A DNA stretch of 64,000 bases from a virus (IMGVR_UViG_3300042261_001452:1-64000); one strand, 5' to 3'; positions 9,072 to 63,820 are shown, numbered from the stretch's first letter. Translations and numbers: made by a program. Notes: a model not told the origin generated them from the letters alone.

Positions 9072-10541
9072 TTATAGTTTTTTGCCAATTCTTATTATTT
9101 TAAAAGTTTTAGAAGATGCCTCTTGTAATACTTTTCCAAATGTTGCTTCTGGACTATGTGCTGCTGGTGCTGGCCTTGGCTTTAGACGCTTTACTCCCTG
9201 TGGTATTGGCCCTGAAGTTGCTGGAACTGGCGTTGCAGATGGAGTTTTGATCTCTGTTTCTGGAATTGCTTTTCCAAATGTTGCTTCTGGACTATGTGCC
9301 GCTGGAACTGGCGTTGGAGGTGAAGCTTCTGGAATTGTCCCTGGAATTTTCTCATTACTAACTTCTGTACTTGGATCTAATACCTTAGATTTCTCTTCTG
9401 TACTTGGATTTAATACCTTATATCTCTCTTCTACCTTACTGGTAAATTCTTTTAATAATTGTGGATTTCTTTTAATATATTGTATAAGAGTCTGAATATT
9501 TTGTGGCAACACAGTAGACTGTGCATATCTCTTATTTTCTGAGACTTTTGAAGATGCTGTACTTAACTTTAATTGCCTTAACACCTCATTTACTATTTCA
9601 GGAGTCCATTTTTCAATCCCAATATTATTCATCTGTTGTGTCGCAAGCTTCTTCTGCTCTGGAGTAAGATCTTGTTCTGGACGAACTTTTGCAGGCGCTC
9701 CATACTGCTGAGCTAAGTCTGCCTGTTGTTTCTTAGCAATTTCTGCAATAGCAGGAACTGCCTTATAAACTGTTATAACAGATTGATATAAATCATTCAA
9801 ACTATTGGCATATGCTCCTTGAAACTCTTCTGGTAAAGTTTTAACCATTTTTGAAACATCATCATAACTTACTTCCTTCTCAGGGTCTAATAAAGCGATT
9901 TGTTGTAAGGCTTTATAGGCAGTATTAAAACTTCCTCTTTGTCCCTCTAGTTTCTCTTTCTTTTCTAATCGCTCTTTCTTTTCCTGTTCTTTTAATGGAG
10001 TAGCAACTTGTTGACTAAAAGGATCTTTATTGAGTTTTTGCTTTATCCAATCTGTTATTCCAGCTTCTTTCATAATAGAAATATCTTCATTGGTAAATCT
10101 ATCATCTATTGCATGTTTAGCACAAACAATAAGCTTTTTAGAAATTTCTGACTTGCCTTGTTCATCCATTGCAGATGACATCTTTATTAACTCTTTCACA
10201 AGATTGGCTGCTTTCTCATTCATTTTAACATCCCTCCATTCCAATACCTTATATCTAGGTGGTAATCCTTTTAAAGATTGAAATCTTACTTTATATTCAC
10301 TATTTTTATTCCCATAAATATTCAATAAACGCATGAGTTCTCCTATTTCTCCTACAATATTTCTTATGGAGACAGGATCATCAGCCAATTTATCAAGCTC
10401 TTCTGTAACTGGTAAATTCTTTATTCTAAATTGTATCTGTGGCAATGCTTCTTGTTCTACAAAAGAAAACCCTGACATTCTTAATCCATGAATAATAGAT
10501 TTAAGTTCTTCAAGAGTTAGGTTTTGATTAAACTCTGTCAT
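9072..10541 (-). CDS. hypothetical probable head protein with Pro-rich repeats
   Basis: PAAHSPEATFGK x2, KVLxPSTE x2, L.K....D..G helix motif. Confidence 0.6.
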   Translation of the reverse strand: MTEFNQNLTLEELKSIIHGLRMSGFSFVEQEALPQIQFRIKNLPVTEELDKLADDPVSIRNIVGEIGELMRLLNIYGNKNSEYKVRFQSLKGLPPRYKVLEWRDVKMNEKAANLVKELIKMSSAMDEQGKSEISKKLIVCAKHAIDDRFTNEDISIMKEAGITDWIKQKLNKDPFSQQVATPLKEQEKKERLEKKEKLEGQRGSFNTAYKALQQIALLDPEKEVSYDDVSKMVKTLPEEFQGAYANSLNDLYQSVITVYKAVPAIAEIAKKQQADLAQQYGAPAKVRPEQDLTPEQKKLATQQMNNIGIEKWTPEIVNEVLRQLKLSTASSKVSENKRYAQSTVLPQNIQTLIQYIKRNPQLLKEFTSKVEERYKVLNPSTEEKSKVLDPSTEVSNEKIPGTIPEASPPTPVPAAHSPEATFGKAIPETEIKTPSATPVPATSGPIPQGVKRLKPRPAPAAHSPEATFGKVLQEASSKTFKIIRIGKKL

Positions 10542-10949
10542 TTATTTCCCTAAAAAGAAACTCTGAGGAATTCCCGGAGCTTTTGGAGCTTGTACTTCTT
10601 CCTTCTTCTCGACCTTAATAGGTTTTTCCATTGGCTCTACTGATTCCATTTGTCCTGCTGGCTCTTCCTTTCTTCTAATAGTATTTACTTCAGAAGTTAA
10701 TCCACCAGCTACAATATCAAGTAATTTCTTGGAATTCTCTCTTAAAGTAGTATTTAAAGCCTCTATCGCCTCCCTATTTTCAGCAATATCTTGTGCTTCG
10801 GCTGCTGCTTCTACCTTTTCCATGAAGTTTCTAATCTCTTGTATAAGCCCAAGAATAGAATTAATACCATCACCTTTCTTAGTCTTTTTCTTTTCTTCTT
10901 CAGCGCAAATTAAGATCTTATCTCTGCTAAAAAAATCTACTTTACCCAT
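10542..10949 (-). CDS. hypothetical coiled-coil protein
   Basis: 135 aa, GGAG RBS, preceded by AGGA-N17-GAA. Confidence 0.6.
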   Translation of the reverse strand: MGKVDFFSRDKILICAEEEKKKTKKGDGINSILGLIQEIRNFMEKVEAAAEAQDIAENREAIEALNTTLRENSKKLLDIVAGGLTSEVNTIRRKEEPAGQMESVEPMEKPIKVEKKEEVQAPKAPGIPQSFFLGK

Positions 10950-11009
10950 AACTATCTCCTATTATTAGTGTATTCTATTCTTTATTCTAAATATATGAAT
11001 AAATTCCTT

Positions 11010-13563: not shown

Positions 13564-14748
13564 ATGAAAGAGATATCAAAAGAAACAATAGAAAAAATAT
13601 CACAAACCAAATTAGAATCAAATAGAAAAGAAACATTATTTAATATAATTAAAAATGATATCCCAAAACAAGTAGATAATAATCTGGCTATACCTTCTCA
13701 CAGAACACGTCAACATATATCTTTTGATGAGTTTAAAACTCTTATACAAGAAGGAAAAACCTTCAAAGAGCTATGTCAAACATATTCAAAACATCTAATG
13801 TTATTTTATAATTATCTATCAAGAGGACAAGTATCAATAAGCAAAGAACAATTTGAAGAACAATATAATAAAGGAATCTCTCTTGATGAAATAGCAAGAT
13901 CAAGTAATACACCAAGAGAACATATTACTTATCTTAGAGAATATTATGGAATTAAAAGAAAGGGAGCCAATTTTATTAAAAGACTACAAAAAGAAGTTCC
14001 CTTAAGCCAAGAAGCAAAAGATATTATTATTGGATCTATATTGGGAGATGGATGTATTACTCCTTTAGGATATTTCTCTGAAAAACATTCTGAAAAACAA
14101 GTAGAATATCTTGAATGGAAGGCTGAGTTTTTAAAGCCAATTTTAACATCTAAATCATTTTCTTGCTATAAAGAGTTTGATAAGAGATATGGAAATGGAT
14201 CAATGAATTATTCCTTTTGTCTAAGAACAATTGCACATAGTTTTCTTTATGAAATAAGAGAAAAATTCTATAAGGAAATAAATAATGAATGGGTTAAGAT
14301 AATCCCAGAAGATATTGGAAGTATAATAAATGAAAGAATTTTAGCCATATGGTTTATGGATGATGGGCATACAGATTGGGGATATAGAAATGGAGAAAAA
14401 GAATATGAAAATCAACTACCACAATGCAAAATATCTTCTGAATCTTTTTCTCTAGAAGACAATATCAAACTTCAAAAAGTACTTGCTGAAAAATATTCTA
14501 TAAATTCCAACATTCGTTTTAGAGATACAAAAAACTTTCAAAAGCCATATTTGAGGATAGATTGTAAAACTTCCCCTTTATTTATGGAAATTATAAAAAA
14601 ATTCATCACACCCGAACTCTTATATAAAATAGACGAAAAAGAATATATTGATCACAAAAAAAGAATATATGATAAAGAAAAAATAACTAATTTATTTATG
14701 GAAAAACATGGCATTTCTCAAATAAAAGAATATGGAAAAGATGCATAA
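13564..14748 (+). mobile_element. free-standing LAGLIDADG homing endonuclease gene
   Basis: IIGSILGDG and LAIWFMDDG; opposite strand; own TATAAT and AAGGAG RBS. Confidence 0.85.
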
Positions 14749-16486: not shown

Positions 16487-16711
16487 TTAATCCTTCTTTT
16501 TTCTCCAATCTGTTGTTCCTTTTACTTTATCAACAATAGAAGCGCAATATGCTCCGGGATTATCTTTATCTTTATTTTTTTCGATACATTCATCTATAAA
16601 GCCATGTTTTTTTGGAGAATGCTTATATTTTTTCTTTTTAGCTTCTGTATTTAGCCAACCAGTTTTTGATCCAATTAATTCCCACTGGGCTTTTGATAAT
16701 TTAATTCTCAT
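16487..16711 (-). CDS. small protein with KLSKxQW..GxKxGW leader
   Basis: MRIKLSKAQWELIGSKTGW then C..NPGAYC domain. Confidence 0.65.
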   Translation of the reverse strand: MRIKLSKAQWELIGSKTGWLNTEAKKKKYKHSPKKHGFIDECIEKNKDKDNPGAYCASIVDKVKGTTDWRKKKD

Positions 16712-19299: not shown

Positions 19300-20766
19300 T
19301 TATTGTAGTTTTAACACTCTTTCATAAACTTTATCTGCTGCTTTCGCCCATGTATATTCAGATCTAATTATATTAGTTAATTTTTCTCCTTTGAGAGTGG
19401 CTTCTTCTCTATTTTCATAGACATATCTCATATGTTTTCTAGTTTGTTTTATTGCATCTGGTCCAAAGTTAGGGAATAATTGATCTTCATAAAATCCACA
19501 ATGACAAGCTAATCTTCTTAAATGGCCATTAGTAGAAACTTTTACAAACCCTTCTGGCTCAACTAGAAATGAATTATCATTAGTTAAAAAGTCAGTATGG
19601 GCAGTACAATTAGTCGCAATTACTGGTAGGCCACAAGATGCTGCTTCTACAACACCTAAAGAGAAGCCTTCGCCTCTAGACATTAATACGAAAGACTGGC
19701 AAGAGTTATATACTTTTGGCATATCTTTTTCAGGTATTATTTTATCATATAAAGAAACATGTGGCAGAGCATCATCTGATTTATCTACTCCTCCACGAAT
19801 AAATTCAAAATCCTTATATATTCTTTCTTTATCTGGGTCTACTTCATTTCTACTAACCATTAATAAAGTCACATCATCTTTACTATCAAATTCTTCTAGA
19901 TAGGCTCTAAGAAGAATATCAAATCCTTTTCTATATCCCCATTTAAATACACTTAGAAAAGTAAAACTATTTCTATCTATTCCGAAGTTATAAGAGGTAT
20001 TATTTTTCTTATATCTTTCCGCATCTACTCCTAGTGGCATGACATAAATAGGAGGTCTAATTTTATTTTTTAGAAACTGATTTTTACCATAATTAGTTGG
20101 AACCCATATTTCATCAAACAGATTAAGTTTTTCTATATAATCTTTATGTAAGGTCTCTGATGTTTCCATCATTGTGTAGAGAATCTTTTTACCGGCATGA
20201 TACATACTTATGGGGACTGTAGCTCCGAAGACTTTTGGGGCATCCGGTCTTAATATTATTCTTTCCATTCTTTTTAGTTCATTCAGAGTAGTTTCGCTGA
20301 CTTCTATAGTTGATTTCTGAATATCTGGCTTTATATCTATGGCTCTATTAGCTAGTTCAAATAACATTGCTCTATTCATTCTAGAAAATCCAGAATAAGA
20401 GGTAAAATGCCCGTACCAATAAAGCTGAGGATGTTTATTTACTAAAATTGTTTCTGGGTCCATTATTTCTACTCCGTATTTATTTATTTCTTGTTCTGTT
20501 AATTCTTCTTGGTTATTTCTATCTTCTTTATGGTGATAAACAGTAGCTCTTTTCTCTACTAAGTCATTATCTTGTTCTTGTTCTAATGTAGGATCATCTA
20601 AGAGCATTCTTTCCCATTGGGCAATAAAATCTGGAGAGTTATTAATTCTTTCCAGATCTTTTTGGCGCTTTTTTTCCGCTTGTTTTTGAAATTCTTCGGC
20701 ATATTTCGATTTTATAATGCGTAAAGAAGCTAGCTCATAAGCTGATTTTAATTCTTTGTTATCCAT
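19300..20766 (-). CDS. glycosyltransferase family 4 (GT-B)
   Basis: RKGFDILL and SRGEGFSLGVVEAASCGLPVIAT (E-x7-E). Confidence 0.9.
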   Translation of the reverse strand: MDNKELKSAYELASLRIIKSKYAEEFQKQAEKKRQKDLERINNSPDFIAQWERMLLDDPTLEQEQDNDLVEKRATVYHHKEDRNNQEELTEQEINKYGVEIMDPETILVNKHPQLYWYGHFTSYSGFSRMNRAMLFELANRAIDIKPDIQKSTIEVSETTLNELKRMERIILRPDAPKVFGATVPISMYHAGKKILYTMMETSETLHKDYIEKLNLFDEIWVPTNYGKNQFLKNKIRPPIYVMPLGVDAERYKKNNTSYNFGIDRNSFTFLSVFKWGYRKGFDILLRAYLEEFDSKDDVTLLMVSRNEVDPDKERIYKDFEFIRGGVDKSDDALPHVSLYDKIIPEKDMPKVYNSCQSFVLMSRGEGFSLGVVEAASCGLPVIATNCTAHTDFLTNDNSFLVEPEGFVKVSTNGHLRRLACHCGFYEDQLFPNFGPDAIKQTRKHMRYVYENREEATLKGEKLTNIIRSEYTWAKAADKVYERVLKLQ

Positions 20767-20791
20767 AATCGTTTATATTATACATTTTGCA

Positions 20792-20816
20792 AGGAAAGAT
20801 AAAAAAATATGTAGAA
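20792..20816 (+). promoter_or_regulatory. AGGA-N18-GAA promoter, 9 nt before ATG
   Basis: Orientation follows plus-strand gene. Confidence 0.6.
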
Positions 20817-20825
20817 TTAATATAC

Positions 20826-21311
20826 ATGGCAACTTCATCTAATATATCAACATTAAATTCCCAAGTAGTAGTTTTAGCTCCATCTTCGATTGTATTAAAT
20901 GGAGATGATATTGATAATGTTCTTAATTTATCCAAAATAAATAATATCGATTTTGGGCCATTATCTCCGGGAGAAACTTCTTCTACTGCTATAATGTATT
21001 TAAATATAGCAAATGCAACTCAGATTGGCAATATTTCTATTGGATTAACAAATATAGGTTCATTAACTTTTTCTGAATGCACTTTTGGAGTAGACACATT
21101 AGACTACTTGGATTATAATTATGTCCCTCAAAATTTATTCTTAGGTATTAATTCTTCTAGAGATCCAGTTAGTTTTTATAATATATCAGTTCCAAATAGT
21201 AAATTAAATACTAGTCAATATGTTTATTTAAATATTAAAGTAACAAATAGAATTAAATTTAAAGTTGCTGGAACAGTAAGATATAAATGGTTCTTTAATT
21301 ATGGGATATAG
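20826..21311 (+). CDS. beta-rich hypothetical structural protein
   Basis: ATG at 20826, 9 nt after promoter GAA; IDFGPLSPG motif. Confidence 0.55.
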   Translation: MATSSNISTLNSQVVVLAPSSIVLNGDDIDNVLNLSKINNIDFGPLSPGETSSTAIMYLNIANATQIGNISIGLTNIGSLTFSECTFGVDTLDYLDYNYVPQNLFLGINSSRDPVSFYNISVPNSKLNTSQYVYLNIKVTNRIKFKVAGTVRYKWFFNYGI

Positions 21312-21314
21312 CCA

Positions 21315-22904
21315 TTATTTAATTCTAATATTTGTATCTTCTTTCTCTTTGACAATAGTCTCTTTTTCTTCGACATATTTGAAACTAGGTAAATAACGAT
21401 AATAGACTTCTAGCATTAAGGCACATAGGCAAGTGTCTTGAACTGTTCCACCAGTATGCTCTCCACTTGATGGGCTTTTCCAGTAACCTATATCTACTTT
21501 TTTCCCATCTATATCTTCGATAGCATCCTTTTCAATAATTTGTGTTTTACATAATTCTGGAGAAAATTGCTTATTCCATGCTATAAAAGAATCTGCATTA
21601 TGTTGAAACTTAGCCTGCGTTATATAATACCAATAATATAATGGACTATTTCCATTATAAGGTTGATTATTATAATTGGCAAAGCTAAAGGTACAAGCTT
21701 CTAGGAATTTCATAGTCTTTTTAACCTCAGATGCCTGTGGATTTCCTAAGATTTGAAGACAAAGCACTCCTGCTCCACTTAATCCAGTTTTTCCTTGCTC
21801 TATATATCCAAATCCACCATCTGCACTAGCATTTAATTTGAATCCTGCAATTGCTTTTTTAATTGCAGGATCTAATCCCGGTAAATCATATTCAAATTGT
21901 GCTATATTTGCAGCTTTCAAAGCCTGACAGCACCACCCCATATAGGAAGTATCATCTCTATCGCTTGGAATTAATTTATAACCAAAGTTACCATTAGCAT
22001 TTTGACCCTTAATTATTTCCGAGACAGCTTTAATAGCAGCTTGTTTGATATCTGGATGCTGAATTAGGCTATAGGCTTCACAAAGGGCATACGCTGCAAT
22101 AGGCTGAGAATAATCATTTCCATCTTTGCCATTAAAATGTCCATTGGCATTTTGATTAGTTATTAGCCATTCAATAGCCTTTTTAACAGTTAGGCCAAAT
22201 TCTTTAGAAGTAGCTGGAATTTCGCCATGAGCCAAGAACGTTAATAAAGCTAAGGCTGTCATTGCTGGTGGAGCATTTTGTTTATCTCCTTTCCAAGAGC
22301 CATCTGACTGTTGTTCCTTTTTAAGCCATCTTAATGCTTTTAAAACTGCTTCTTCTGTTGATGTACTGCTAGCTCCTCCATTGCCTCCCCATTTTTTTAA
22401 CGCTCCATTTCTTCCACTTGATGTTCTACTATGATTTAACCCTTTTAAGACTAGTCTGGATTTTACCGTAATATCAATTTCAAATCCTTTGTTTAGATTG
22501 TCAGAGCTACTAGTTCCTATTCCTGTTCCTTCTGTTAAATCTCCCGCTCCCCCTATAGGTTGGTCTGTGGGGGTAAGAGAAAAACCACCAGATTCTTCTT
22601 GGGATATTTCTTTTATTTCTTCTTGTTTTTGTTGAATTGGTTTTTCTATTGGAATATCCTTATCTAAGTCTTCTGGCTTGGCATTTGCAACAATTTCAAC
22701 AGGATTAGTATCTACATAATTGCTAGAAGAGCTTGTGGCAAAGGTAACTAATACGCCAATAGCTATAACATGGAATACTAATGATCCTGCTGGACCCCAT
22801 AGATGGATTAGAAATTGCCTCCAATGTTTCCTTATATTGTTGAAAAAACTCAGTTTTGGTTCTTCCCATGAAGCCCTTCCACTTTCTAGATCGAAATTTT
22901 TCAT
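21315..22904 (-). CDS. membrane-anchored prenyltransferase/squalene-oxidase-repeat (alpha/alpha barrel) protein
   Basis: N-terminal TM (GSLVFHVIAIGVL), ALRWLKKEQQSDGSW and similar repeats, C-terminal LEVYYRYLP. Confidence 0.8.
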   Translation of the reverse strand: MKNFDLESGRASWEEPKLSFFNNIRKHWRQFLIHLWGPAGSLVFHVIAIGVLVTFATSSSSNYVDTNPVEIVANAKPEDLDKDIPIEKPIQQKQEEIKEISQEESGGFSLTPTDQPIGGAGDLTEGTGIGTSSSDNLNKGFEIDITVKSRLVLKGLNHSRTSSGRNGALKKWGGNGGASSTSTEEAVLKALRWLKKEQQSDGSWKGDKQNAPPAMTALALLTFLAHGEIPATSKEFGLTVKKAIEWLITNQNANGHFNGKDGNDYSQPIAAYALCEAYSLIQHPDIKQAAIKAVSEIIKGQNANGNFGYKLIPSDRDDTSYMGWCCQALKAANIAQFEYDLPGLDPAIKKAIAGFKLNASADGGFGYIEQGKTGLSGAGVLCLQILGNPQASEVKKTMKFLEACTFSFANYNNQPYNGNSPLYYWYYITQAKFQHNADSFIAWNKQFSPELCKTQIIEKDAIEDIDGKKVDIGYWKSPSSGEHTGGTVQDTCLCALMLEVYYRYLPSFKYVEEKETIVKEKEDTNIRIK

Positions 22905-22976
22905 GATTTTCTCCTCCTAATTGCCATTATATCACAAAATAGAAGAATATCTTGAAAAAAAATTATTATGAAATAA

Positions 22977-23441
22977 TTATTTTAGAAGTACTTTTCTAAA
23001 TTTGCAAAACTCATCTAAATGTTCAACTTCATCGCCAAGAATTTTTTCAATTAACATTTCGGTTGCTCTATCATTAGCTTGTTCGCACAAATCTAGGATT
23101 TCAGTATATAATTTTATTGCTTTTTTCTCAGCAAGAATATCTTGTTTTAAAGCTTCGTCAATATCTGAGGTAAAGGGAGCTAATGGTTCAATTTCCGTAG
23201 TTGGAGTACCACCCAATGAGCAAATTCTCATACAAAGAGAATGAGCATGCCCATTTTCTTCATCCATATGGGCCTTAAAATGTTCAATTGTATCTACGAA
23301 TTTCCCTTTGACATTATTATAATGTTGTTGATATTGCATTGAAGCTTGATATTCGGAGGCTAGGGCTTTATTTAAGAGGTCAACTAGATCAGTATTATTA
23401 GTATCATCATCAAAAAGCTTATTTGAATTGGTAAGTGACAT
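22977..23441 (-). CDS. ferritin/bacterioferritin-like di-iron protein
   Basis: ASEYQA..Y, EENGH, AEKKAIKLY, DEVEH ferroxidase pattern. Confidence 0.85.
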   Translation of the reverse strand: MSLTNSNKLFDDDTNNTDLVDLLNKALASEYQASMQYQQHYNNVKGKFVDTIEHFKAHMDEENGHAHSLCMRICSLGGTPTTEIEPLAPFTSDIDEALKQDILAEKKAIKLYTEILDLCEQANDRATEMLIEKILGDEVEHLDEFCKFRKVLLK

Positions 23442-23450
23442 TTATATCTC

Positions 23451-24215
23451 CTATCTTATTGAATTTGAAATTCTTATTACGTCATCTGCATATTCTAGTG
23501 AATGTTCAGATTTCCAACCATTTGGCCCACCACCTTGATGCATTGCAATAAGTTGTCTTAAGGTAGGTGCCTTGCCAGTATCTTCCATAAATTCTCTTAC
23601 CCATTTTGTAAGATATGCTCTAACAACTTTTTTTGCAATATTTGAATTGTGGCGTACTTGATTTACAGTATATTTGGCATTCATTTCTTTATTAGCATCT
23701 GTCAAATAACTTTGTTGTATTTGATAATCGCCATAAGACCATTTCTTATTTATATCTAATTTTTTAATTCCCTTTTTACCAGTAGTTTCTTTATATGCAA
23801 TTGCCGAAAGAATTTTATCGCTAAGTAATTCATTTATAACTTCTTTGGCAGAGGAATATTCTTTTGCAGATAGCGTAGCTTTAGGGCTTTGTTGAGTTGG
23901 AACTTGTTCTTTAGGCTGAAGTTTATTAGAAAGCCAACTATCCGGGATTTCAGGAACATTAAATGAGTTATCTGGAGTACGATTATATGCAAGATAGTTT
24001 TTTTCTGCTTCTGATAGATTATTCATTTTTCTTTGAATATCTTCTTTTTTAACATTCATTTTCTGAGCGGCTTCAAGGGGGGAATAGCCCATCATTACTA
24101 AAAGAATTGCAGATAAGATAGCTTTGCTCCAATCTCCACCCCCTTCTTTATACCAATCATCACAACTGGCGAGTATGAGATCATCAATTAGTTTATCTGA
24201 CTTAATATTATGCAT
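23451..24215 (-). CDS. protein with C-terminal lysozyme-like domain
   Basis: AIAYKET..SYGDYQIQQSYLTDAN..HQGGGPNG. Confidence 0.65.
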   Translation of the reverse strand: MHNIKSDKLIDDLILASCDDWYKEGGGDWSKAILSAILLVMMGYSPLEAAQKMNVKKEDIQRKMNNLSEAEKNYLAYNRTPDNSFNVPEIPDSWLSNKLQPKEQVPTQQSPKATLSAKEYSSAKEVINELLSDKILSAIAYKETTGKKGIKKLDINKKWSYGDYQIQQSYLTDANKEMNAKYTVNQVRHNSNIAKKVVRAYLTKWVREFMEDTGKAPTLRQLIAMHQGGGPNGWKSEHSLEYADDVIRISNSIR

Positions 24216-24310: not shown

Positions 24311-24682
24311 ATGAAACTTACATTTTCTAAGAAAGAATGGGACTCTTTAGGTGCTTCCAAGATAAAACTAGCTCAAAAAACAGAACAAAAGACAGAACAA
24401 AAGACTGAGAAACAACAACCTCAATTACAGCAAGTTGGTAATACTTATTATGCCAATTATAAACTAGAGAAAGAGACTGGAGATACTGTCATTACGGTAA
24501 CTGATGAGGTTGGTAGAATTTTTGCAAGTGTAAGAACTGGCCCTGATGCTAGAGAAAATGCAAGAGATATTATCAGTGATTATGAAATGATGAGAAACAT
24601 AGATGACTTATTTGGCCTAAAACATTTCCTAGTTCGTTTTGGCATAATTAGAAGAAAAGATCAGCTCGTCAAGGCAAAATGA
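24311..24682 (+). CDS. hypothetical with KLTFSKKEW leader and KTEQ repeats
   Basis: AAGGAG RBS before ATG 24311; MKLTFSKKEWDSLG..KLAQ. Confidence 0.6.
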   Translation: MKLTFSKKEWDSLGASKIKLAQKTEQKTEQKTEKQQPQLQQVGNTYYANYKLEKETGDTVITVTDEVGRIFASVRTGPDARENARDIISDYEMMRNIDDLFGLKHFLVRFGIIRRKDQLVKAK

Positions 24683-49500: not shown

Positions 49501-50748
49501 AGTTGCAAATCCACCTTCTCTAATATCTTCTAAACTAAAATTCTTATATAGTCCAGTTCTGCCGAATAAGGCTCTTACTGTTAAGGAATTTGCTGGTAAA
49601 AATTTTGTCTGTCCTGCTTCTTCTTCTGGCAATTGTGAAGCAGCAAAGGCTTCTTGAAGATTAACGCTTCTTCCAGACCTAAGCATATTATAATAATTAA
49701 TACAGACTCCTCTTTCTCTTCTATACTGCTGAAGAATGGTTGACTTTACATTTTCATGTAGCTTTTCCTCTATTTTATTTAAAATGGATATAGCCTCTAG
49801 ATCAGCAGGAGAATTCATAACCGCCTCTTCATCCATATTAAGCAATCTTAATCTATCATTATAAATTGCTAATTCTTCTTTGGTTAAGTCACGAAGAATC
49901 TCTTCCTGTGACTCATATAATTTATTATTTCTTTTATCTTCTAATATTTTTTGGATTTTTTTCTGTCTTGCCTGAAGACTCTTATTAATTTTGGCATATC
50001 TTTCTTTAACTTCTTTAACATTAACAGGATTGCCATCATCGTCAAATGAGGTGACATTCTTGGCACGTTCAGTATTAGCTGCTATAGCATTGTTAATTCT
50101 TTCTAGTTCTATTTCTATTCCTTTATATTCTCTATCTAGCAAGAGTCTTTTATGGGCCTCTCTCATTTTCATAGCAGTTGTCGATTCTTCCATTATCTCT
50201 TTAAGGTTCTTTTCAAATTCTATAATAGATTCTTTTATTTTTTTGCTATTTCCCGTTTGAGATCCATCTGGACTAAAAATTTGGTCAATAATAGAAAGAT
50301 CAAATCCCTTCTCTTCTAACCAACTAGGAGTAACAACTCTTTCTTGTCCATAGAGAAGAGAATCAATATTATTGACCACGTTTGGATAATCCGTTGTTAA
50401 TCTTTTACCTAGAAGATCATCAGTTGTAACATCTTGGAAGTAATCTTCTGGAAGACTAGCATTTGTTGCGTCTGGATAATAAACTTCATTGTTTGATGGA
50501 GGAATAGCATAACGCATAAGCATTTCAACTAATGGCATATAAGGATCAGTACCAATTACAAAATTTACCATGCCTGTTGATCTTAGTTTAGAATATAATC
50601 TTTCATATTTGGGCAACTTACAAATAGCATCTAACATTTTATAATTGGCAACATCTTTTGTTCCCAAAACATCATTAAAATGTCCTAAGGCTGCTTGTTT
50701 CTTTAGTTTATTATTATGAATTTTCTTTATAGCTATTATTTTAAACAT
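46531..50748 (-). CDS. large AAA+ ATPase
   Basis: GKPGVGKT, NKWLGE pore loop, IFDEIDR, MTTN. Confidence 0.85.
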   Translation of the reverse strand: MFKIIAIKKIHNNKLKKQAALGHFNDVLGTKDVANYKMLDAICKLPKYERLYSKLRSTGMVNFVIGTDPYMPLVEMLMRYAIPPSNNEVYYPDATNASLPEDYFQDVTTDDLLGKRLTTDYPNVVNNIDSLLYGQERVVTPSWLEEKGFDLSIIDQIFSPDGSQTGNSKKIKESIIEFEKNLKEIMEESTTAMKMREAHKRLLLDREYKGIEIELERINNAIAANTERAKNVTSFDDDGNPVNVKEVKERYAKINKSLQARQKKIQKILEDKRNNKLYESQEEILRDLTKEELAIYNDRLRLLNMDEEAVMNSPADLEAISILNKIEEKLHENVKSTILQQYRRERGVCINYYNMLRSGRSVNLQEAFAASQLPEEEAGQTKFLPANSLTVRALFGRTGLYKNFSLEDIREGGFATWNPLKWLNESYKDFRGQIDRANRSQSQESIIADFNRSLEILSTKLEEYQTTDEELIGIKNNILGILTAKIKNPQGQEDPSQTIRLILAKQSNIQEEMRKFNAKASSHGKTMVLQNMDRCAVIQPFDSNRSDKKDEGQGYRYQLQDQKRFSDFFDTCAARDLKAIEGKSIPDGRRIVFISNEKIKIEGAKYADLAAFPVTDEEARIIVRHMMGPFINKMVDARLYRKQEELEEEYEDDPNTLVSELEKAKTEFEKERSKGTIDSQSKDVVNALVNAIIGLSQKDAIDLVNKTISENLHGLNETLYDEQGQRMGIYFDADTAKENLVKETNERKGQTMGIVAKTPRVKFKSFIYNKKGGWGEKMEEIKTKLLILSENGEEMSKIAKKIKELTRLRDSAKDKATKEMYSQEIVASNRMWKDLKAQASIFLQTAIPHFTILYGKPGVGKTVWGEALADIIQTVGEPISLYSVNVEQTKNKWLGETGRLTDLLIEHIADSRNCIYIFDEIDRMLSQGTSGGGGGGAAQETHETTKEQVKKFLQFFERDNQELLINRNIFVIMTTNNVANLDNALKNRGQMGQMEVLPPDDPSEFVRFLNECIDDEEQARPNHPWLSQPSFGNTPKQRWDVIRNILRENKVDVDAIAKALVGKHLGVRSIVNLVEMMFKEYDSYAQWQDSLKRGVKTPMMGLPFTTENLLGAINESLVDREGKDKLGVGDYATKIHKETSELLASKPLEEVMVPDPTVVQKDPKNPVMRKVYRLPKELQELVDGKAPLKKEEEEEDQYGVVTIEVPDPNDPTKTKLERVPVKKTKTMQDLKDEGMKEDQEEPTAETTQEKITPPAKTPEKPKKGEETDKTKVKKQENKPNLQNQSTDNVARATTSTDYLYSFLKNKGIIQDDKLVVAYNNTIADKGLKKLDNELKNNQQLSPEKAEEFREIIRRLDADKKAKDSKAFDKLEDVGVGMFWNGQCMVAPVELFDMTESEQIQNKQRK

Positions 50749-50827: not shown

Positions 50828-52771
50828 TTATCCCTCTATAAATCCTCTTTCTTTTACGGGAAAAGGAAGTTCAAGTTGTTCTTCTTTATTTTCTTCCTCT
50901 TCTGTAAAGAATTGTCTATCTCCTAACACTAATTCTCCTGTTCCATTTTTTCTTACAGAGCCTTGACTATTCTCAAGGATCTTTATAAAATTTTCAGAAT
51001 TCCACTTGATTCCTTCCCCTGTTTTTACAAAGAAATAATCATATGTAGCCATTTCCACTAATAATGTCTCAACATCTCTAACTGTAAACCCCTTAATTGT
51101 CGCTATATGTGCTATTCTATCTAAATCTAATTTATTAATCTTTTCTTGAAATGTTTCTGCCGAACTATAGCCTATAATCTTAATGCCTCTATTATTCATT
51201 CTTCTGGCAGAGGTCAATAATGTCTCTTTTAAAGATTTGGCATCAAAGTTGTCAATATTTATTACTAAATCTGCTCTTCCAGATCTTAATAATGGGCCTG
51301 TTATATTTTCTTTATGGTTAGTTGTTAATACTATAAAGATATTATTTTTAACTAACCCATTCTCTTCTTGAATATTTTGTAACCAATTCATGAATTCAGA
51401 TTCAACCTGCTTATGAGATTCATGCATTCCTTGTCCAGCTTGATTTGTAGCACCAATGGCTCTATCATATTCATCTATCCTTACGATTAAATGAGAGGCA
51501 TTAGCAATTTTTTTCAAACTTTCTCTCATTCTTTCTGCTCCTTCTCCAACCCATTTTGAGTGTACGGCACCTATATTAAAGTCCCATACATCAAATCCTA
51601 ATAATCCTGCCAAATGAATCGGAAAACTACTTTTACCTACTCCACCCTTTCCATAAAGAACTAAAACATGTGGTATTCTAGTTTGTAAGGCTTCTATTGT
51701 TTCAGAATAATAATCATCTTTACAAGATTTTAAGGCTTGATCTTGGGCTTGTTTCAAATCCCTAATTTCATTAAAATCTCTCAATATCTTTTTAACATCA
51801 TATGTAAAACTACTAGTCTCTGGACAAATATAATCTTCCCATGGTCTAGGTATTAATTGCGTGAGTCCAAATCCATCTTCCATAAAATTCTTATTAATTT
51901 TATCTCTTAATACTTTTACTAATGCATTTCCGTTAATAATTGTTTCATCTACTTTATCTTTTGACCTAGAAAAAGCATATCCTAAAATATCACCTGCATT
52001 AAGATAAGTTAGACCAGAAACTTTTCTTAAAATTTGTTCTCTATGAGAATGATTCATAAGAACTTTATATTTGTAGTTATTAAATAAAAAGATATAACTA
52101 TCCAATAAATGATCTGCACCAAATTTATCAACTGGAGGAAGTTCAATAGTTCTTATCTTAAAAGGAAATTGCAATTTTATATTTGATATCAATAATAATC
52201 TACAAGACTTTCTATTTGTGACATTTCTAAAATCATCAAAAATCCATAAGGCTCTTTGATCTATTCTTCCGGGTTCTTTACAAAAATCTAGACTATAATC
52301 AATATTTCTTATTACCAGATATTTATCTTTAAAATCATTTAGTAAAACTTCTTTCCTAGAAACAAATCCATCTGGTTTTCTCAATCTTTTACCAGTTTGA
52401 TAATCTATTTTAAAGGTTGGCATTCCATTAGAATCAATTTCAGTTTCAAAATTACCATAAATAAGTTCATCTAAAGATGTTGTACTATTGCTTGCTCCGG
52501 GCGAACCTTTTTGAAGTTCGACAGCATCTATTTTAGTAGTATTACGAAATAACTCTTGTTTTTTAAAACAATCATCCAAGAAAAAATCAACAAGGCAAGG
52601 ATCTTCATAATTTACAACTAAATTGGTTATTCCTGTTAAAGATAGCTTAATGGCTCCCAAAAGTTCTTTTTTAGTTTCTTGAAAACGCTCGCTATTTTGA
52701 ATAAGTGAAATAAAATCAATATTCTTTTTGATTTTTTGATTATTTTCTTCAATATTAATATCTTCTGCCAT
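50828..52771 (-). CDS. AAA+ ATPase (Ycf46-like)
   Basis: GKGGVGKS, SKWVGE, IDEYDR, LTTN, LLRSGRAD. Confidence 0.85.
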   Translation of the reverse strand: MAEDINIEENNQKIKKNIDFISLIQNSERFQETKKELLGAIKLSLTGITNLVVNYEDPCLVDFFLDDCFKKQELFRNTTKIDAVELQKGSPGASNSTTSLDELIYGNFETEIDSNGMPTFKIDYQTGKRLRKPDGFVSRKEVLLNDFKDKYLVIRNIDYSLDFCKEPGRIDQRALWIFDDFRNVTNRKSCRLLLISNIKLQFPFKIRTIELPPVDKFGADHLLDSYIFLFNNYKYKVLMNHSHREQILRKVSGLTYLNAGDILGYAFSRSKDKVDETIINGNALVKVLRDKINKNFMEDGFGLTQLIPRPWEDYICPETSSFTYDVKKILRDFNEIRDLKQAQDQALKSCKDDYYSETIEALQTRIPHVLVLYGKGGVGKSSFPIHLAGLLGFDVWDFNIGAVHSKWVGEGAERMRESLKKIANASHLIVRIDEYDRAIGATNQAGQGMHESHKQVESEFMNWLQNIQEENGLVKNNIFIVLTTNHKENITGPLLRSGRADLVINIDNFDAKSLKETLLTSARRMNNRGIKIIGYSSAETFQEKINKLDLDRIAHIATIKGFTVRDVETLLVEMATYDYFFVKTGEGIKWNSENFIKILENSQGSVRKNGTGELVLGDRQFFTEEEENKEEQLELPFPVKERGFIEG

Positions 52772-52784
52772 TTTATTATTATAC

Positions 52785-52820
52785 AAAAAAAGAAGGACGA
52801 CAAAAATCGTCCTTCTTTTT
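52785..52820. terminator. bidirectional-type terminator
   Basis: aaaaaagaaggacga...tcgtccttctttttt. Confidence 0.75.
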
Positions 52821-54045: not shown

Positions 54046-55008
54046 CTACATTAATCTATCTACTTCCTGTCTACTTCTTTCACGAAATTCATTTAACTTA
54101 TTAGGATCTATTTCTTGATCATTATAATCTAAAACTATTAAATTGACAATATTATCTAATAAAAAGCTCTTAGGTTGATTCCCTTTAATCGTCCATCCAT
54201 CCCCACCAGATATATTTGAAGATATATCAAAAGCCACTAAAAATTCTCCGTTAGGCCCACTTTTAATGACATAACCTTCTCCGGGTAAAGGCATAACTTT
54301 TCTAGGGGGTAATATATGTCCATTTAATGTCCAATAAATAATTTCCATTTTAAGGTTGAATTCATCAGCAAAACGAATTTTTCCTCTTAAATCTCTTAAC
54401 CAATCAACCTTATCTGCCATTTCTTCATCATGTTTTTCTAGGTAAAGGCTTTGAGGATATTGCCCTCCTTCTGGCTGTTGTTCTGGAGGAGTTAATTCTT
54501 TTGGCTGTTCTTCTACTTTCTCTGGAATTGTCTTAGTTTCTTCTACCTTAGGAGTTTCTTTTGGCTTAACTTCTTCCTTTTTGGGTTCTTCTTTCTTTTT
54601 AAATGGTCTTGATAATAAATCTTTAATTGTCTTAATAAATCCGCCTTGGGCAGTTATTTCTCTTTTATTTCTATGAGTAACGCCTTCTCCAACTATTGAA
54701 AATCCAATATTTACATTATTCTCTCTAAACCAATTCTTATTGACTTCCAATGCATATTTACAAGGTTTATTAGAACGAATTGATCTTGTGCTTAAAGGAG
54801 CCATACTTTCTATTTGAGTAATTGTTCCTTTTTCATCTATAAAGGCAATATCTAATGGAATATAAGTATTCTTCATCCAAAAACTTAAAACATTAGATTC
54901 TGGAAATTTAAATAGCATTCCATTATTTTGAGCTAATTTTTTCCTTCCCATTAATCCAAGTTCCCTCTTGGAAGGAGTATCAGCTAATTCTATTTTTAGT
55001 TTTTTCAT
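54046..55008 (-). CDS. DUF192-domain protein with C-terminal WYL-like domain
   Basis: LADTP..RELGLM.R..GMLF..FWMKNTYIPLDIAFI; C-terminal I.Y..R.V.P..AFD..KSF.LD.I; ATGA overlap. Confidence 0.7.
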   Translation of the reverse strand: MKKLKIELADTPSKRELGLMGRKKLAQNNGMLFKFPESNVLSFWMKNTYIPLDIAFIDEKGTITQIESMAPLSTRSIRSNKPCKYALEVNKNWFRENNVNIGFSIVGEGVTHRNKREITAQGGFIKTIKDLLSRPFKKKEEPKKEEVKPKETPKVEETKTIPEKVEEQPKELTPPEQQPEGGQYPQSLYLEKHDEEMADKVDWLRDLRGKIRFADEFNLKMEIIYWTLNGHILPPRKVMPLPGEGYVIKSGPNGEFLVAFDISSNISGGDGWTIKGNQPKSFLLDNIVNLIVLDYNDQEIDPNKLNEFRERSRQEVDRLM

Positions 55009-59413: not shown

Positions 59414-59457
59414 AATAGTATTATACTTCAAAAAAATGAACAAAAAACCTTTAAACA

Positions 59458-59490: not shown

Positions 59491-59511
59491 TATTTTTCAA
59501 ACTATTCTTTT

Positions 59512-59859: not shown

Positions 59860-59876
59860 TTTATTAATCCTCTTTC

Positions 59877-60329: not shown

Positions 60330-60343
60330 TTTCTTCTCCTATT

Positions 60344-61414
60344 TTATTTAATATCTTTTAAAAATTGTTCTAAATAGATAGATGATAATCCTGCATTTAG
60401 GCCATACTCACCAACATCTGAAACAATTGCCGTCAACATTCCTATTACTTTCCCATTATTTATATTAACTATTGGACACCCACTATTGCCGGGGAAAGCT
60501 GATAAATCAACAAATATATAGTCTGGAGCATTTGTATAATTGTAAATTCGTCTATTTAAACTTCCAATTGTTCCAAATGTCACATTATTCTCAAATCCAT
60601 GCGGACTTCCTACTGCCATTATATCTAACCCAATAGTAATGCTTTGCCGATTATCTAATTCAAAAGGCTCTACATCTATATCTGCCCTTAATAATGCAAT
60701 ATCTAATGTTGGATTAACTTTTTCAATAACTGCTGGATATTTTTGATTATTTTGCATTAAGAATATTTGAATATTATTAGATATTCCAACGTTTTCCATT
60801 TCTTTTCTAGCAGCATTATTATTTTTATCATATCTTGAAATGACATGAGCGCAAGTTAAGAATAATCCAGGACCAATACAAAATGCAGATCCAATTTCTC
60901 TAACTCCTTTTAGTGCATTAATACTTTCAACCATAAAAGTCTTTTCAAGAGCTTCTGCAATAACTATAGCCTTATTATTCTGGGCAATTCTAGTTAATGA
61001 TATTGAAGATATCCCTTTGTCTTTTAAGTTTGATATATATTTCTGAGCAGAATAATAAGAAGAAAAAGTTTTTGCTCCACCGGGAACTTTAACTCTCCAT
61101 TTTTCCATATTTAATTGACCTATAGGAAGCATACCCTCTAAGATAGACATATCCATTTGTTCTCTTTTATATTGTCCACCATCTTCCTTATAAGATTTGC
61201 CTACATCTTCGCCCCATGTTTGCGGAGACATTTCAGACCAATCTCCTCCACCACTTGGTATACGATATTTTTTACCCTCTAAAGCATCTTGCAAGGTAAA
61301 AACATTGTTAGCTGGAATAACTGATTTATCCGTAATCGGACTTAATCCAGTTCCCGGACTAATTATTTCAGGCATAAAGGTTCTTGATTCTTTTATTATG
61401 GGTTTCTTTTCCAT
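60344..61414 (-). CDS. trypsin-like (HtrA-type) serine protease with N-terminal extension
   Basis: LTCAHV, DIALL, GSPHG, PGNSGCP catalytic triad motifs. Confidence 0.85.
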   Translation of the reverse strand: MEKKPIIKESRTFMPEIISPGTGLSPITDKSVIPANNVFTLQDALEGKKYRIPSGGGDWSEMSPQTWGEDVGKSYKEDGGQYKREQMDMSILEGMLPIGQLNMEKWRVKVPGGAKTFSSYYSAQKYISNLKDKGISSISLTRIAQNNKAIVIAEALEKTFMVESINALKGVREIGSAFCIGPGLFLTCAHVISRYDKNNNAARKEMENVGISNNIQIFLMQNNQKYPAVIEKVNPTLDIALLRADIDVEPFELDNRQSITIGLDIMAVGSPHGFENNVTFGTIGSLNRRIYNYTNAPDYIFVDLSAFPGNSGCPIVNINNGKVIGMLTAIVSDVGEYGLNAGLSSIYLEQFLKDIK

Positions 61415-61423
61415 AATACTATT

Positions 61424-61447
61424 TTCAAAATTTTATAAGATATTCCT
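61424..61447 (-). promoter_or_regulatory. AGGA-N17-GAA promoter, 9 nt before ATG
   Basis: Upstream of serine protease gene. Confidence 0.6.
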
Positions 61448-62224
61448 CTAGTACTCGCCTGTTTTATCGCCACTAATATCTTCTATATCTGGATTATTAT
61501 TTAAATTTATAAAAGCACCTTTTACATTATCGCTAATCTTATTGTTTATTTCAGTGTCTATAAATGCCTCTCTATCAGAATTATCATCTACAGAATTAAT
61601 AAACTTAATATTCTTCCCTTTAGCTCTTGCTTTGGCAGAAACTTCTGATTCTAGAAGGATAGAATTTCTCATATTTACTTTGGTTGCTTCTTTTCCAGTT
61701 CCAACAGTAGCTTCTAATCCCATTCTTTCATTCATTTGCAAATTAGATTCGTCAACTTCTATTTCCTCTTCATTTTCGTAATCTTCTTCTTCTAATCTCT
61801 TTAATGCCTCAATTGAAGCTCTTGTTGCATCTGTTTCTGGGATATCGCCAGTCATATTTCTTAACATTTTCCCATGTCTAGGACCATTAAGAGTCATAGC
61901 TGTAACTTCGCTATTGTCAGTTTTATCTTCTTTTCTAGCAATTGCCTTAACAAACTTCTTAACTGAAGTATTATTTTTATTCTCTATTGGGGTATTTCCA
62001 TTCTCTATTATAGGATTAATTTTTATTTCTTCCATTCTTTGGGTTTTAGCCTCTAAGGACTGTGAATCTATCAAAAGGCCAGCATTCTTAAGACTAATAA
62101 TTTCTCGCATTTGTTCATCATCTGTAATTTCTATATTAGATAATTTGGTTTTACCTACCAAAGAACGCTTTAAACTATTTAACACAATAGTAGAATCAGT
62201 CAATCCCTGTATGGAAATAATCAT
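61448..62224 (-). CDS. hypothetical protein
   Basis: 258 aa, AAGGAG RBS. Confidence 0.6.
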   Translation of the reverse strand: MIISIQGLTDSTIVLNSLKRSLVGKTKLSNIEITDDEQMREIISLKNAGLLIDSQSLEAKTQRMEEIKINPIIENGNTPIENKNNTSVKKFVKAIARKEDKTDNSEVTAMTLNGPRHGKMLRNMTGDIPETDATRASIEALKRLEEEDYENEEEIEVDESNLQMNERMGLEATVGTGKEATKVNMRNSILLESEVSAKARAKGKNIKFINSVDDNSDREAFIDTEINNKISDNVKGAFINLNNNPDIEDISGDKTGEY

Positions 62225-62467
62225 GTTTTTACTCCTTTGTTTTTCTTCTATTATACAAGAATTAATAAAGTGCGTCTAAAGAAATATGCTTTTTATCCAT
62301 TTCTTTTCTAATCTTAGCTAAAAACTTAGATTTTTCACCCTGAGAAAATTGAGCAGCACCTAATAGACTCATTATTTCTCTATTGGCAGCAGGGAGATCA
62401 ACATCCTTAAATTTACTAATAAAAGAATTAAAAGCCTTATTTACTTTATTTTCAGATGTTTTAGGGT

Positions 62468-63820
62468 CTACTTTTTTTTTATATCTGCAATAACAATTGG
62501 GAAGTCATAATCTGATTTAGCAGTATGAACTTCTGGCATATCTTTAGACTTCAAAGGGTTCTTTTCAATTGTCTCTGGCAATTCAGAAAATTCTATATTT
62601 TCTGGAATTTCAGTCTCATCAACTTCTTCTGGAGAAACTTCTGTTATTGGAATATCTTCTTCTTCGTCTGCTGTTTCATTTCCAGCATACATGAATTTAA
62701 TGACCTTATTTACTTTGTCTAAAGAGAAGGCACTAGCTGGAATTTCAACTCCCTTTTCATCAGCAATATAATTTGCAGCATCTGCTAAAAGTTGATCAAT
62801 ATAATCTTCATCGTTTAAATTTGTTGCAATAGAAGGATTTAACTTAACAGTACCAAACTGATGAACTGTCCCATCTATATCTTTCGTATTTAATGTGATA
62901 TTAGTAAAAGGATTTTGAATTTCATTTCCTTCTGCTTTATCTTCTGTAAATCCTAGCATTCTAAAATTGATATCAGAATGATTAAGATTATTTCTTGATT
63001 TAGAAATTGAAAAATCTTCTTCTGAAATTTGTCCAGTCAAGAAAGGATATATTTCTAGTACCTTTTCCATTGCAGATTGTTTAACTTCTGAAACATTGGC
63101 AAAATCATCATTATCATATGACATTTTTACGAATATTGTGGGAGTTCCATCTGGAGTTATAGATTTAACATTTTTAATCATAGAAATCTTTGAAGGATCT
63201 ACTCCAAAAGTAGTAGGCATAGCGGCATCTAATCCTTCTCCTCTTTCATTCTCTTCATCTTCATAAATATCAACAAATGGATCTTCTGGGAGATCAAGCA
63301 CATCTTCGCCTTCATCATCTTCTTTTTGCAAAGCATTAAATCTTTTACCCATTGTGCCATCATCAAAATTTAATCCTCCATACTGAGCTGTCTTAATAGT
63401 ATTTTTTGAAGAAGCTGCTTTCAAACTCTCCCACCATCTCATTTTCTTGCTAATTTCAGATGCTGGCTTATATTTTTCATCTTCTACCTTATTGCCAGCT
63501 AATCTCTTTTCCTCTAGCTTATTAATATTCCCTTGATAGACTTTAGGATTACGGAATTTAGATCCAAACTCCGACGCTGTTGTTTCCAATTGTCTTTCTA
63601 TAAGAGAATCAGCGGAACCCTTTCTAACAGAATCTAGTAATTTTTCAATAGTAACATCTTTTTCTTCTACTCTATCCCTTTCTAATTGTTTTTGAGTAAT
63701 TGTTTCAGGAGCATCTTGTCTCATTTTGTTTTCCTTAAAACGCATATTAATATGAGTATCACCTAAATTTTTCTGTTCTTTTTTTGCCTTCTCAGCCTTA
63801 ATTTTGATAAAATTAGCCAT
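62468..63820 (-). CDS. hypothetical head protein with T/IxxQL repeats; possible frameshift extension to 62262
   Basis: TITQKQLE, TIEKLLD, LIERQLE; IKTAQ; ends ATA AAA AAA AAG TAG. Confidence 0.65.
   Translation of the reverse strand: MANFIKIKAEKAKKEQKNLGDTHINMRFKENKMRQDAPETITQKQLERDRVEEKDVTIEKLLDSVRKGSADSLIERQLETTASEFGSKFRNPKVYQGNINKLEEKRLAGNKVEDEKYKPASEISKKMRWWESLKAASSKNTIKTAQYGGLNFDDGTMGKRFNALQKEDDEGEDVLDLPEDPFVDIYEDEENERGEGLDAAMPTTFGVDPSKISMIKNVKSITPDGTPTIFVKMSYDNDDFANVSEVKQSAMEKVLEIYPFLTGQISEEDFSISKSRNNLNHSDINFRMLGFTEDKAEGNEIQNPFTNITLNTKDIDGTVHQFGTVKLNPSIATNLNDEDYIDQLLADAANYIADEKGVEIPASAFSLDKVNKVIKFMYAGNETADEEEDIPITEVSPEEVDETEIPENIEFSELPETIEKNPLKSKDMPEVHTAKSDYDFPIVIADIKKK

Follow-up and report, generated by a model that had tools for sequence, protein, structure and literature searches.

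RESULTS

Head module of a phage-G-like megaphage

The 64,000-bp window analyzed here is the first 64 kb of a single 86,639-bp viral contig, IMGVR_UViG_3300042261_001452, which has 33% G+C and carries nearly all of its genes on the minus strand. The window contains a head module in which genes for the portal, an 1842-residue protease-scaffold polyprotein, and the major capsid protein lie in that order (Table 1). This report concerns a short motif, [Lys/Arg]-x-Ala, that recurs within these and neighboring proteins and at the N termini of many unrelated ones. The prohead protease gene is located between the portal and major capsid protein genes, as expected for a protease of the HK97/XkdF type, and two PF00004 AAA ATPases are encoded inside the module (46531-50748, 1405 residues, and 50828-52786, 652 residues, both on the minus strand). 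Open reading frames (ORFs) were called mechanically (longest ORF, greedy), and six starts were reset by eye. Rfam and tRNA scans of the window gave no match.

IMG/VR contains at least 80 relatives with capsid protein identities of 61 to 93%, one complete member of which has terminal repeats. Bacillus phage G (Donellivirus gee) is the nearest, and only, relative in culture. Complete relatives measure 476 to 548 kb, and contigs of 58 to 94 kb are rated 14 to 20% complete; therefore, the contig is a fragment of a phage-G-like megaphage of roughly 450 kb. The records of ten relatives were searched directly. The orthologues are akin to each other, and counts over orthologues are not independent events.

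A short motif is enriched around the head genes

A preliminary description of this stretch had proposed that [KR]xA[QSN] tetrapeptides form a capsid-targeting and maturation code for enzymes carried in the virion, and had suggested comparison with shuffled sequences and with replication genes of the same genome. All of the N termini and internal motifs that it quoted are present in the sequence. The 45 ORFs within positions 9072 to 63820 contain 59 copies of [KR]xA[QSN] versus 25.7 ± 4.9 expected, an excess far beyond chance that none of 300 shuffles reached, while the other 44 ORFs of the contig contain 8 (10.5 expected). The reversed motif is not enriched (25 versus 25.9 expected). With a site matrix built solely from polyprotein sites of relatives, 14 sites in the contig score 11 bits or more versus 2.95 in shuffles, and the context of the sites reads hydrophobic-hydrophobic-K-[V/T/L]-A-[S/Q].

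Comparison of the head region with the rest of a genome, which answers the second of these controls, came out in the same direction. A 98%-complete relative of 476 kb (607 ORFs) has 50 copies of [KR]xA[SQ] versus 14.0 expected in the three 20-kb bins that hold its head genes, where the reversed motif occurs 14 times, and 85 versus 74.5 in the other 416 kb, so that enrichment is found only around the head genes. Of the 18 loosely tagged ORFs of this genome, eight lie within 17 kb adjoining the capsid gene and one more encodes the protease.

Conserved sites in the protease-scaffold polyprotein

With few exceptions, relatives have an ORF of 1700 to 2450 residues upstream of their capsid gene. In 71 such orthologous polyproteins, 1010 copies of the motif were counted versus 225 expected, compared to 194 versus 229 for the reversed motif. 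K.A is the most overrepresented gapped residue pair in these proteins (2222 versus 1006), and K.AS is the top triplet outside the conserved domains (526 versus 76).

Alignment of 22 of the 68 unique polyproteins (24 to 61% identical to that of the window) gave 23 positions at which at least eight sequences have the motif, usually with poorly conserved flanks. Conserved sites in the window's protein are at residues 25-28, 238-241, 252-255, 258-261, 775-778, 1021-1024, and 1818-1821. The motif precedes the protease domain in all 22 aligned sequences, three more sites directly follow the domain, and another lies ∼21 residues before the C-terminal end. At residues 1021-1024, K-x-A-Q is present in 21 of 22 sequences, with Ala and Gln invariant. 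Beyond the alignment, 54 of 57 orthologues have the motif no more than 45 residues downstream of the protease domain, 51 of 68 unique orthologues have it at residues 9 to 60, and 43 of 68, versus 8 of 68 after shuffling, have it in the last 45 residues. The start of the protease itself has the form M-x(1-4)-[KR]-x-[AS] in 53 of 68.

The protease domain is 44% identical to residues 102-235 of phage G gp19. His95 and Ser146-Met-Gly are invariant across 22 orthologues, in the His/Ser order expected for the HK97/XkdF type, and we infer that both residues are catalytic. Inteins (Hint domains) are inserted at or adjoining the Ser-Met-Gly region in 7 of 28 orthologues (L015, L016, L021, L023, L033, L034, and L039), and this placement makes the serine look like an essential site. 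PF14550 (Peptidase_S78_2, XkdF type) weakly matches 8 of 28 orthologues, with a best E value of 5.6e-4, and PF04586 matches 1 of 28. A profile of the domain gave only chance matches against PDB sequences, and no homology to assemblin was detected.

Two further features of the polyprotein were observed. ITE[KA]QL-type repeats, kept across orthologues, follow one another over residues ∼590 to 700, and there are several CxxC zinc-ribbon units, one of which (residues 1186-1222) matches Pfam Zn_Ribbon_TF.

Sites at the junctions of other head-region proteins

The motif had also been described as marking domain boundaries inside proteins, and comparison with orthologues bears this out for the CCA-adding/HD enzyme, the trypsin-like protease, and the 1235-residue protein. 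All four CCA orthologues with a C-terminal domain have the motif in the preceding linker (KQAS, RQAS, or KTAS), which is otherwise unalignable, while both orthologues without this domain instead start with MNWYK[TF]A. The three sites of the CCA enzyme (0.8 expected) have no significance taken singly. The TRIAQ of the trypsin-like protease is SRVAQ in a relative (conserved in the one comparison available). The 1235-residue protein has junction sites at residues 378 (KNAQ, directly followed by MKIEK), 638 (SWYKQAQ), and 878 (LRFAQ), and all three are conserved in orthologues. From residue 382 onward, exactly after KNAQ, it corresponds to a 794-residue orthologue (G001) that starts MKIIKVSQ, and SWYKQAQ and LRFAQ match NNWYKEA and KRFAS in the orthologue.

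Three segments of the portal (residues 52-96, 429-720, and 1086-1187) align with phage G gp14 at 31 to 38% identity. A LAGLIDADG intein fills the first gap, and a second insert of ∼365 residues fills the next. A [KR]xA[QS] site is found at the same aligned place in 8 of 12 portals, including that of phage G, within an N terminus that is otherwise variable and for which a scan against viral contigs found no relative. FNL..[KR]EAM at the start of the 860-residue protein is retained in orthologues. The AAA+ ATPase had been counted among the tagged proteins, but the 1405-residue protein has no N-terminal tag and zero copies of [KR]xA[QSN].

N-terminal leaders on unrelated proteins

In the six-frame translation of the whole contig, the pattern M[KRT][IT][FYI][KRN][ILM][ASNC], which was fitted after the data had been seen, has 11 matches. 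Every match is an ORF start located 0 to 18 codons downstream of a stop, and the ORFs are 71 to 362 codons long. Composition-preserving shuffles gave 0.15 ± 0.38 matches (maximum of 2), and the pattern is found at 11 of 89 start methionines versus none of 572 internal methionines. An independent set was provided by the loci of the relatives, in which 82 of 854 unique ATG-start ORFs have K/R at residue 5 and A at residue 7 (11.4 expected per position). Codon choice differs between copies of the leader, which indicates that selection acts on the peptide. No pairwise BLASTP similarity (E ≤ 0.01) was found among 22 tagged proteins after their tags were trimmed. A signal-peptide reading of the leaders was rejected, as no hydrophobic stretch is visible.

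A related form, NWYKxA, has four copies in the contig, two at ORF starts and two inside proteins. A second, longer leader (family B), MKIKLSKxQWxxxGKxAGW, stands at the start of four ORFs, and a fifth begins with a variant of it. Across 80 loci of relatives (1254 ORFs, 1169 unique), 152 ORFs begin with M-x(2,3)-[KR]-x-A: 10 capsid proteins, 52 polyproteins, and 90 others (79 unique, in 37 loci). Leader variants among relatives include MKIYKIA, MKIIKTAKY, MKIYRLA (in a relative of 43% G+C), and MNWYKKAQ (8 of 19 ORFs of one locus), and there is a composite form in which the tag is followed by GKxT, a KLSxKEWxxxGKKAGW unit, and a further K-x-A. The start of the capsid protein reads MAIDK[KR]A, with K5 retained in more distant relatives. 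The residue after Ala varies in N-terminal leaders; the preference for Q, S, or N at this position (P1′) that had been proposed thus stands for internal sites and not for leaders.

Two adjacent minus-strand ORFs beyond the window (contig positions 76196-78061 and 78258-79121, L082) have identical 25-nucleotide upstream sequences and nearly identical first ∼45 residues (MEERKENWYRVEKK...), which looks like a recent partial duplication. The longer ORF contains an internal NWYKGAS.

Leader type and protease type across lineages

Two tagged families encoded outside the window extend into other lineages. The YHGS family (contig 79312-79785) has 61 homologues. M[KR]I[YF][KR][IL][AS] or MNWYKVS is present on the close homologues, while distant ones are leaderless or have E-type leaders such as MKTFKQFLES and MRLHEIAS. 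A profile of this family against the PDB and a protein atlas found no function. DUF5662 (contig 75577-76176) has 119 homologues, 43 with a K-x-A leader, many leaderless, and others with leaders of the MNFKEFLxE type. The IMG/VR loci of the E-type homologues have the respective E-type leader on neighboring genes as well; L145, for example, has at least 10 such genes.

Peptidase_S77 (PF03420), the T4-type protease, was found in 3 of 5 E-type records, the other two records having completeness values of 39% and 74%; the same search found it in none of five phage-G-like genomes that are at least 97% complete. Leader type and protease type therefore covary. The sequence comparisons support the view that the leaders act as counterparts, specific to each lineage, of the T4 capsid-targeting sequence. 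In another phage lineage (loci L139 and L140), a different repeated ORF start, MKETIAQ[FL]LK[VI], was observed on at least six neighboring genes.

Comparison with phage G

The capsid protein of the window is similar to that of phage G (56% identical), as are the protease domain and the portal, and phage G also has K-x-A-S after the protease domain and before the portal core. Its protease is instead a separate 300-residue protein, gp19, with KVAS at residue 248 and KIAS at residue 274, sites that closely follow the protease domain and approach the C terminus. Because gp19 ends where the polyprotein continues, a junction in the polyprotein is a gene end in phage G. The 20-kb bin with the phage G head module has 15 motifs versus 4.8 expected, a weaker enrichment than here and yet the highest in that genome, the rest of which has 90 versus 75.9.

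The MKIxKxA form of the leader occurs once in phage G, but MKRLx[KR]xA opens five ATG ORFs versus 0.13 expected, all of them annotated starts (gp38, gp251, gp346, gp347, and gp675), and GTG-start or near variants open gp13 and gp351. The phage G member of the YHGS family, gp251, reads MKRLIRKAS..LYHGTS. A particle proteomics study reports that gp346 is found in phage G particles (PMC12484599).

Other features of the contig and its relatives

Coordinates of the features are collected in Table 1. In addition, a free-standing LAGLIDADG_2 homing endonuclease (13564-14748, plus strand, E value of 7.5e-30) lies on the strand opposite to almost all other genes, and minus-strand auxiliary genes at 19300-24215 and 54046-55008 encode a GT4 glycosyltransferase, a prenyltransferase/terpene-cyclase-like protein, a ferritin-like protein, a destabilase-like lysozyme, and a DUF192 protein. 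Beyond the window, the final ∼5 kb of the contig (81000-86639) contains short, G+C-richer ORFs of different composition and few plausible genes; this part could represent the end of a genome, DNA of foreign origin, or a join made during assembly. The relatives G001, G002, G006, and G012 (255 to 494 kb) bear the IMG/VR label "provirus," which looks doubtful given the even 37 to 43% G+C and phage-like coding of G001 over its full length.

Table 1. Motif-bearing genes and candidate sites in the contig (positions counted from the first nucleotide of the window)
Feature	Position	Strand	Details
Protease-scaffold polyprotein, 1842 aa	30816-36344	-	Starts MLRKIA; 15 [KR]xA[QSN] sites vs 4.8 expected
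Prohead protease domain (residues ∼47-234)	35643-36206	-	phrog_18299 "head maturation protease," E 2.4e-15
Major capsid protein	29011-29877	-	Starts MAIDKRA; phrog_2522, E 1.7e-73; 56% identity to phage G gp27 (PDB 6wkk)
Portal, 1455 aa	39510-43877	-	LAGLIDADG intein; C-terminal DUF559/REase domain
Candidate portal propeptide site R58-T-A-S61	43695-43706	-	∼15 residues before conserved core
Head-module protein, 860 aa	36361-38943	-	Starts MVTFNL..KEAMG
Head-module protein, 531 aa	43941-45536	-	VKVAQ, VKMAQ, IKIAS, LKVAQ; 4 sites vs 0.6 expected
Protein, 329 aa	45538-46527	-	Starts MTIFKMA; 5 sites vs 1.0 expected
Protein, 271 aa	52864-53679	-	LTKTAS at residue 23 and 2 more; 3 sites vs 0.4 expected
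Protein, 450 aa	62468-63820	-	IKTAQ at residue 143; 3 sites vs 0.6 expected
Multimodule protein, 1235 aa	55706-59413	-	Starts MNWYKKAQ; C-terminal PolyA_pol head domain
CCA-adding/HD enzyme	26022-28025	-	FKTAQ (26475-26489) in linker ahead of 150-aa C-terminal domain
Trypsin-like protease	60344-61414	-	TRIAQ (60980-60994) ∼30 residues ahead of Trypsin_2 domain
Protein, 73 aa	53774-53995	-	Starts MTTFNLNKFVKKA
Protein, 115 aa	59512-59859	-	Starts MKIFKLA
Zinc-ribbon-like protein, 71 aa	28406-28621	-	Starts MRIFRIS
Protein, 234 aa	24679-25383	+	Starts MKIFKIS; weak Tpt1/KptA / ART-like match under Pfam cutoff
Protein, 362 aa	12329-13417	-	Starts MRIFKLN; internal NNWYKTAV at residue 286
Longer leader, family B	28032-28409	-	MKIKLSKSQWEEMGKKAGW
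Leader family B	16487-16711	-	MRIKLSKAQWELIGSKTGW
Leader family B, variant	24311-24682	+	MKLTFSKKEWDSLGASKIKLA followed by Q; site scores 11.6 bits
Protein, 218 aa	16726-17382	-	Internal B unit between KKA and IKKAQ
GNAT acetyltransferase, 146 aa (outside window)	75150-75590 (L082:11350-11790)	-	MKIIRIC tag; above Pfam cutoffs for Acetyltransf_7 and Acetyltransf_1

DISCUSSION

The comparisons above support the view that [KR]xA[QSN] is a short linear motif that is conserved and is linked to both the head module and the polyprotein. With moderate confidence, we favor the reading that K-x-A is the recognition and cut site of a prohead protease, probably of the HK97/XkdF type, and doubles as a capsid-address leader. 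The protease would recognize hydrophobic-hydrophobic-[Lys/Arg]-x-Ala and cut beside it, probably after Ala and before Ser, Gln, Gly, or Asn. Cleavage at these sites would free the protease domain and dissect the polyprotein, including a tail ∼20 residues from the C terminus, in a layout like that of the herpesvirus R and M sites. It would also trim the portal N terminus and separate the modules of the CCA enzyme, the trypsin-like protease, and the 1235-residue nucleotidyltransferase. The seven-residue leader (M-K/R-I-F/Y-K/R-I/L-A or M-N-W-Y-K-x-A), sometimes lengthened by the ∼25-residue KLSKxQWxxxGKKAGW unit, would direct small enzymes that are unrelated to each other into the prohead and be removed there, as in T4. 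Prohead proteases act inside the prohead in T4 and HK97, so enzymes with conserved sites or leaders are likely to be inside the prohead as well. Delivery into the host would follow by analogy with such systems.

The capsid-targeting and maturation code of the preliminary description is partly supported, in that a conserved motif is tied to the head module and polyprotein, stands at junctions, and is accompanied by leaders that behave like counterparts of the T4 sequence. It does not extend to the untagged AAA+ ATPase, and the inclusion of "ARTs" among the tagged proteins depends on one Pfam match below threshold.

Several observations weigh against the reading that we favor. The window's protease domain has no Pfam match at E ≤ 1, and its assignment to the S78 type draws on PHROGs, the weak Pfam matches in 8 of 28 orthologues, and the 44% identity to gp19. 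Three of the 71 orthologous polyproteins (L012, L076, and L078) have no motif excess, and the tagged genes of the contig are spread over 12 to 81 kb, beyond the head module. Cleavage after the basic residue would likewise be consistent with the conserved Lys/Arg. The matrix derived from polyprotein sites scores the leaders moderately (MKIFKLAAAG, 8.0 bits; MNWYKKAQ, 6.8 bits), and the variable residue after Ala suggests that leader and internal site may be read differently. In phage G, the capsid protein has no leader and the deposited chain (PDB 6wkk) comprises 280 of 282 residues; the capsid MAIDKRA need not be cut. The particle proteomics study also places more than half of the nucleic-acid enzymes in phage G particles (PMC12484599), so that the detection of gp346 there is not specific.

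The T4 leader ends in L/I-x-E, the cut motif of gp21. The capsid-targeting sequence of T4 (IPI-III, Alt; protease gp21) is, like the leader described here, a short N-terminal element on unrelated proteins, which it loads into the scaffolding core (PMC3012670). In both cases, the motif within the leader is found again in scaffold and head proteins, and T4-like [LI]xE leaders are present on YHGS and DUF5662 members in lineages with a gp21-type protease. The present system differs in having K-x-A rather than L/I-x-E, a 7-residue rather than a 10-residue leader, and a protease that is probably of the S78/XkdF type rather than S77, and packaging is here a prediction from sequence. The herpesvirus UL26 assemblin-scaffold is similar in that an N-terminal protease is fused to the scaffold, with one site immediately behind the protease and another some tens of residues before the C terminus; for the phage protein, this comparison concerns the motif as read from sequence. 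With a cut after Ala, the phage sites would share Ala at P1 and Ser/Thr at P1′: sites in pseudorabies virus are YLQA-T and VQA-S (PMC4498786), and those here include YLVKTA-S and DKLA-S. Unlike UL26, the phage protein would have a basic residue at P3, and it has a length of 1700 to 2450 residues, many more sites, zinc ribbons, and repeats. In SPN3US/phiKZ (gp245/gp175; motif A/S/G-x-E), many head and ejection proteins have propeptides, including one at the portal N terminus, and the protease undergoes self-processing (PMC10052503). Those propeptides likewise contain a three-residue motif in several copies, but the motif and protease lineage differ, and they are mostly long (111 to 254 residues) rather than 7-residue leaders.

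It is possible, though unlikely, that the motif is not cut at all and that hydrophobic-K-x-A-S/Q docks onto a head component (capsid N-arm pocket, scaffold, portal, or DNA), with leaders that tether proteins and stay on. The leaders do resemble the N termini of the capsid protein and the protease, and the residue after their Ala is free. However, the sites bracket the protease domain and sit in variable junction linkers that correspond to gene ends or starts in relatives (gp19, the 794-residue G001 protein, and the CCA enzyme with or without its C-terminal domain), a pattern typical of polyprotein processing. Moreover, the equivalent leader in the [LI]xE lineages ends in the cut motif of the T4-type protease.

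We consider it quite improbable that the sites are cut by a different enzyme, either the trypsin-like protease acting after Lys/Arg or a host protease, such as the Prp used by Staphylococcus phage 80alpha. The invariant basic residue fits the P1 specificity of a trypsin-like enzyme, and the gene for the one encoded here lies within the motif-rich region, with R-I-A-Q preceding its own catalytic domain. Against this, the Ala two residues downstream is as conserved as the Lys, the reversed motif is not enriched, and Trypsin_2 is present in only three of five genomes, in two of which it is far from the head genes. It is also absent from phage G and from a 100%-complete 548-kb relative (L014) with a motif-rich polyprotein (9 versus 2.4), which rules out the trypsin-like protease as the general agent.

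Less probable again is that the leaders are unrelated to the capsid and either reflect a property of translation starts or of mRNA in an AT-rich genome or serve as a tag for the two AAA+ ATPases or a degradation system, with the internal motif being a separate matter. Leader codons are A/T rich, both PF00004 ATPases are encoded in the head module, and many tagged genes of the contig lie outside that module. A translation-start artifact is nevertheless rejected by the synonymous variation, which shows selection at the peptide level, by persistence of the leader at 43% G+C, and by internal copies of NWYKxA, which stand at conserved junctions. The clustering of tagged genes beside the capsid gene in the near-complete relative and the way in which leader type follows protease type across lineages also speak against a role apart from the capsid. 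Finally, chance or AT bias in Lys- and Ala-rich proteins, to which single sites without significance such as those of the CCA enzyme might be ascribed, is rejected by the shuffle, reversed-motif, internal-Met, and whole-genome controls, and we give it negligible weight.

If K-x-A is indeed a cut site and address of the prohead protease, a broader proposal can be made tentatively: that jumbo phages use swappable address labels. Cargo families (YHGS, DUF5662, CCA-adding enzyme, and GNAT) would move between unrelated phage lineages and each time gain a leader suited to the prohead protease present there, [LI]xE with T4-type S77 and [KR]xA with phage-G-type S78. In the phage G clade, the leader would copy the first residues of the capsid protein and protease, and cargo would enter the prohead by mimicking the assembly handle of the shell. 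The principle is already known from T4 and phiKZ-like phages. A literature search that did not reach supplementary tables, the phage G structure paper, or virion protein lists found nothing on the K-x-A motif, phage G processing sites, leader-protease covariation, or leaders in phage-G-like phages; the protease lineage, polyprotein context, and phage G clade were likewise not found in the literature searched.

Phage-G-like megaphages of ∼450 to 550 kb occur widely in metagenomes, and the construction and cargo of their very large heads are barely characterized. A code readable from sequence would predict the mature forms of head proteins, explain the "giant" genes of 1700 to 2450 residues as encoding polyproteins, and list candidate virion-delivered enzymes, including the GNAT acetyltransferase, nucleotidyltransferases, the ART-like protein, YHGS, and DUF5662. 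Phage G is culturable and has its own form of the leader, which makes the idea checkable there, and leader type versus protease family across lineages provides a general, testable rule. Should the labels prove swappable, the set of proteins injected by a megaphage would be legible from its sequence and could be re-addressed via seven residues.

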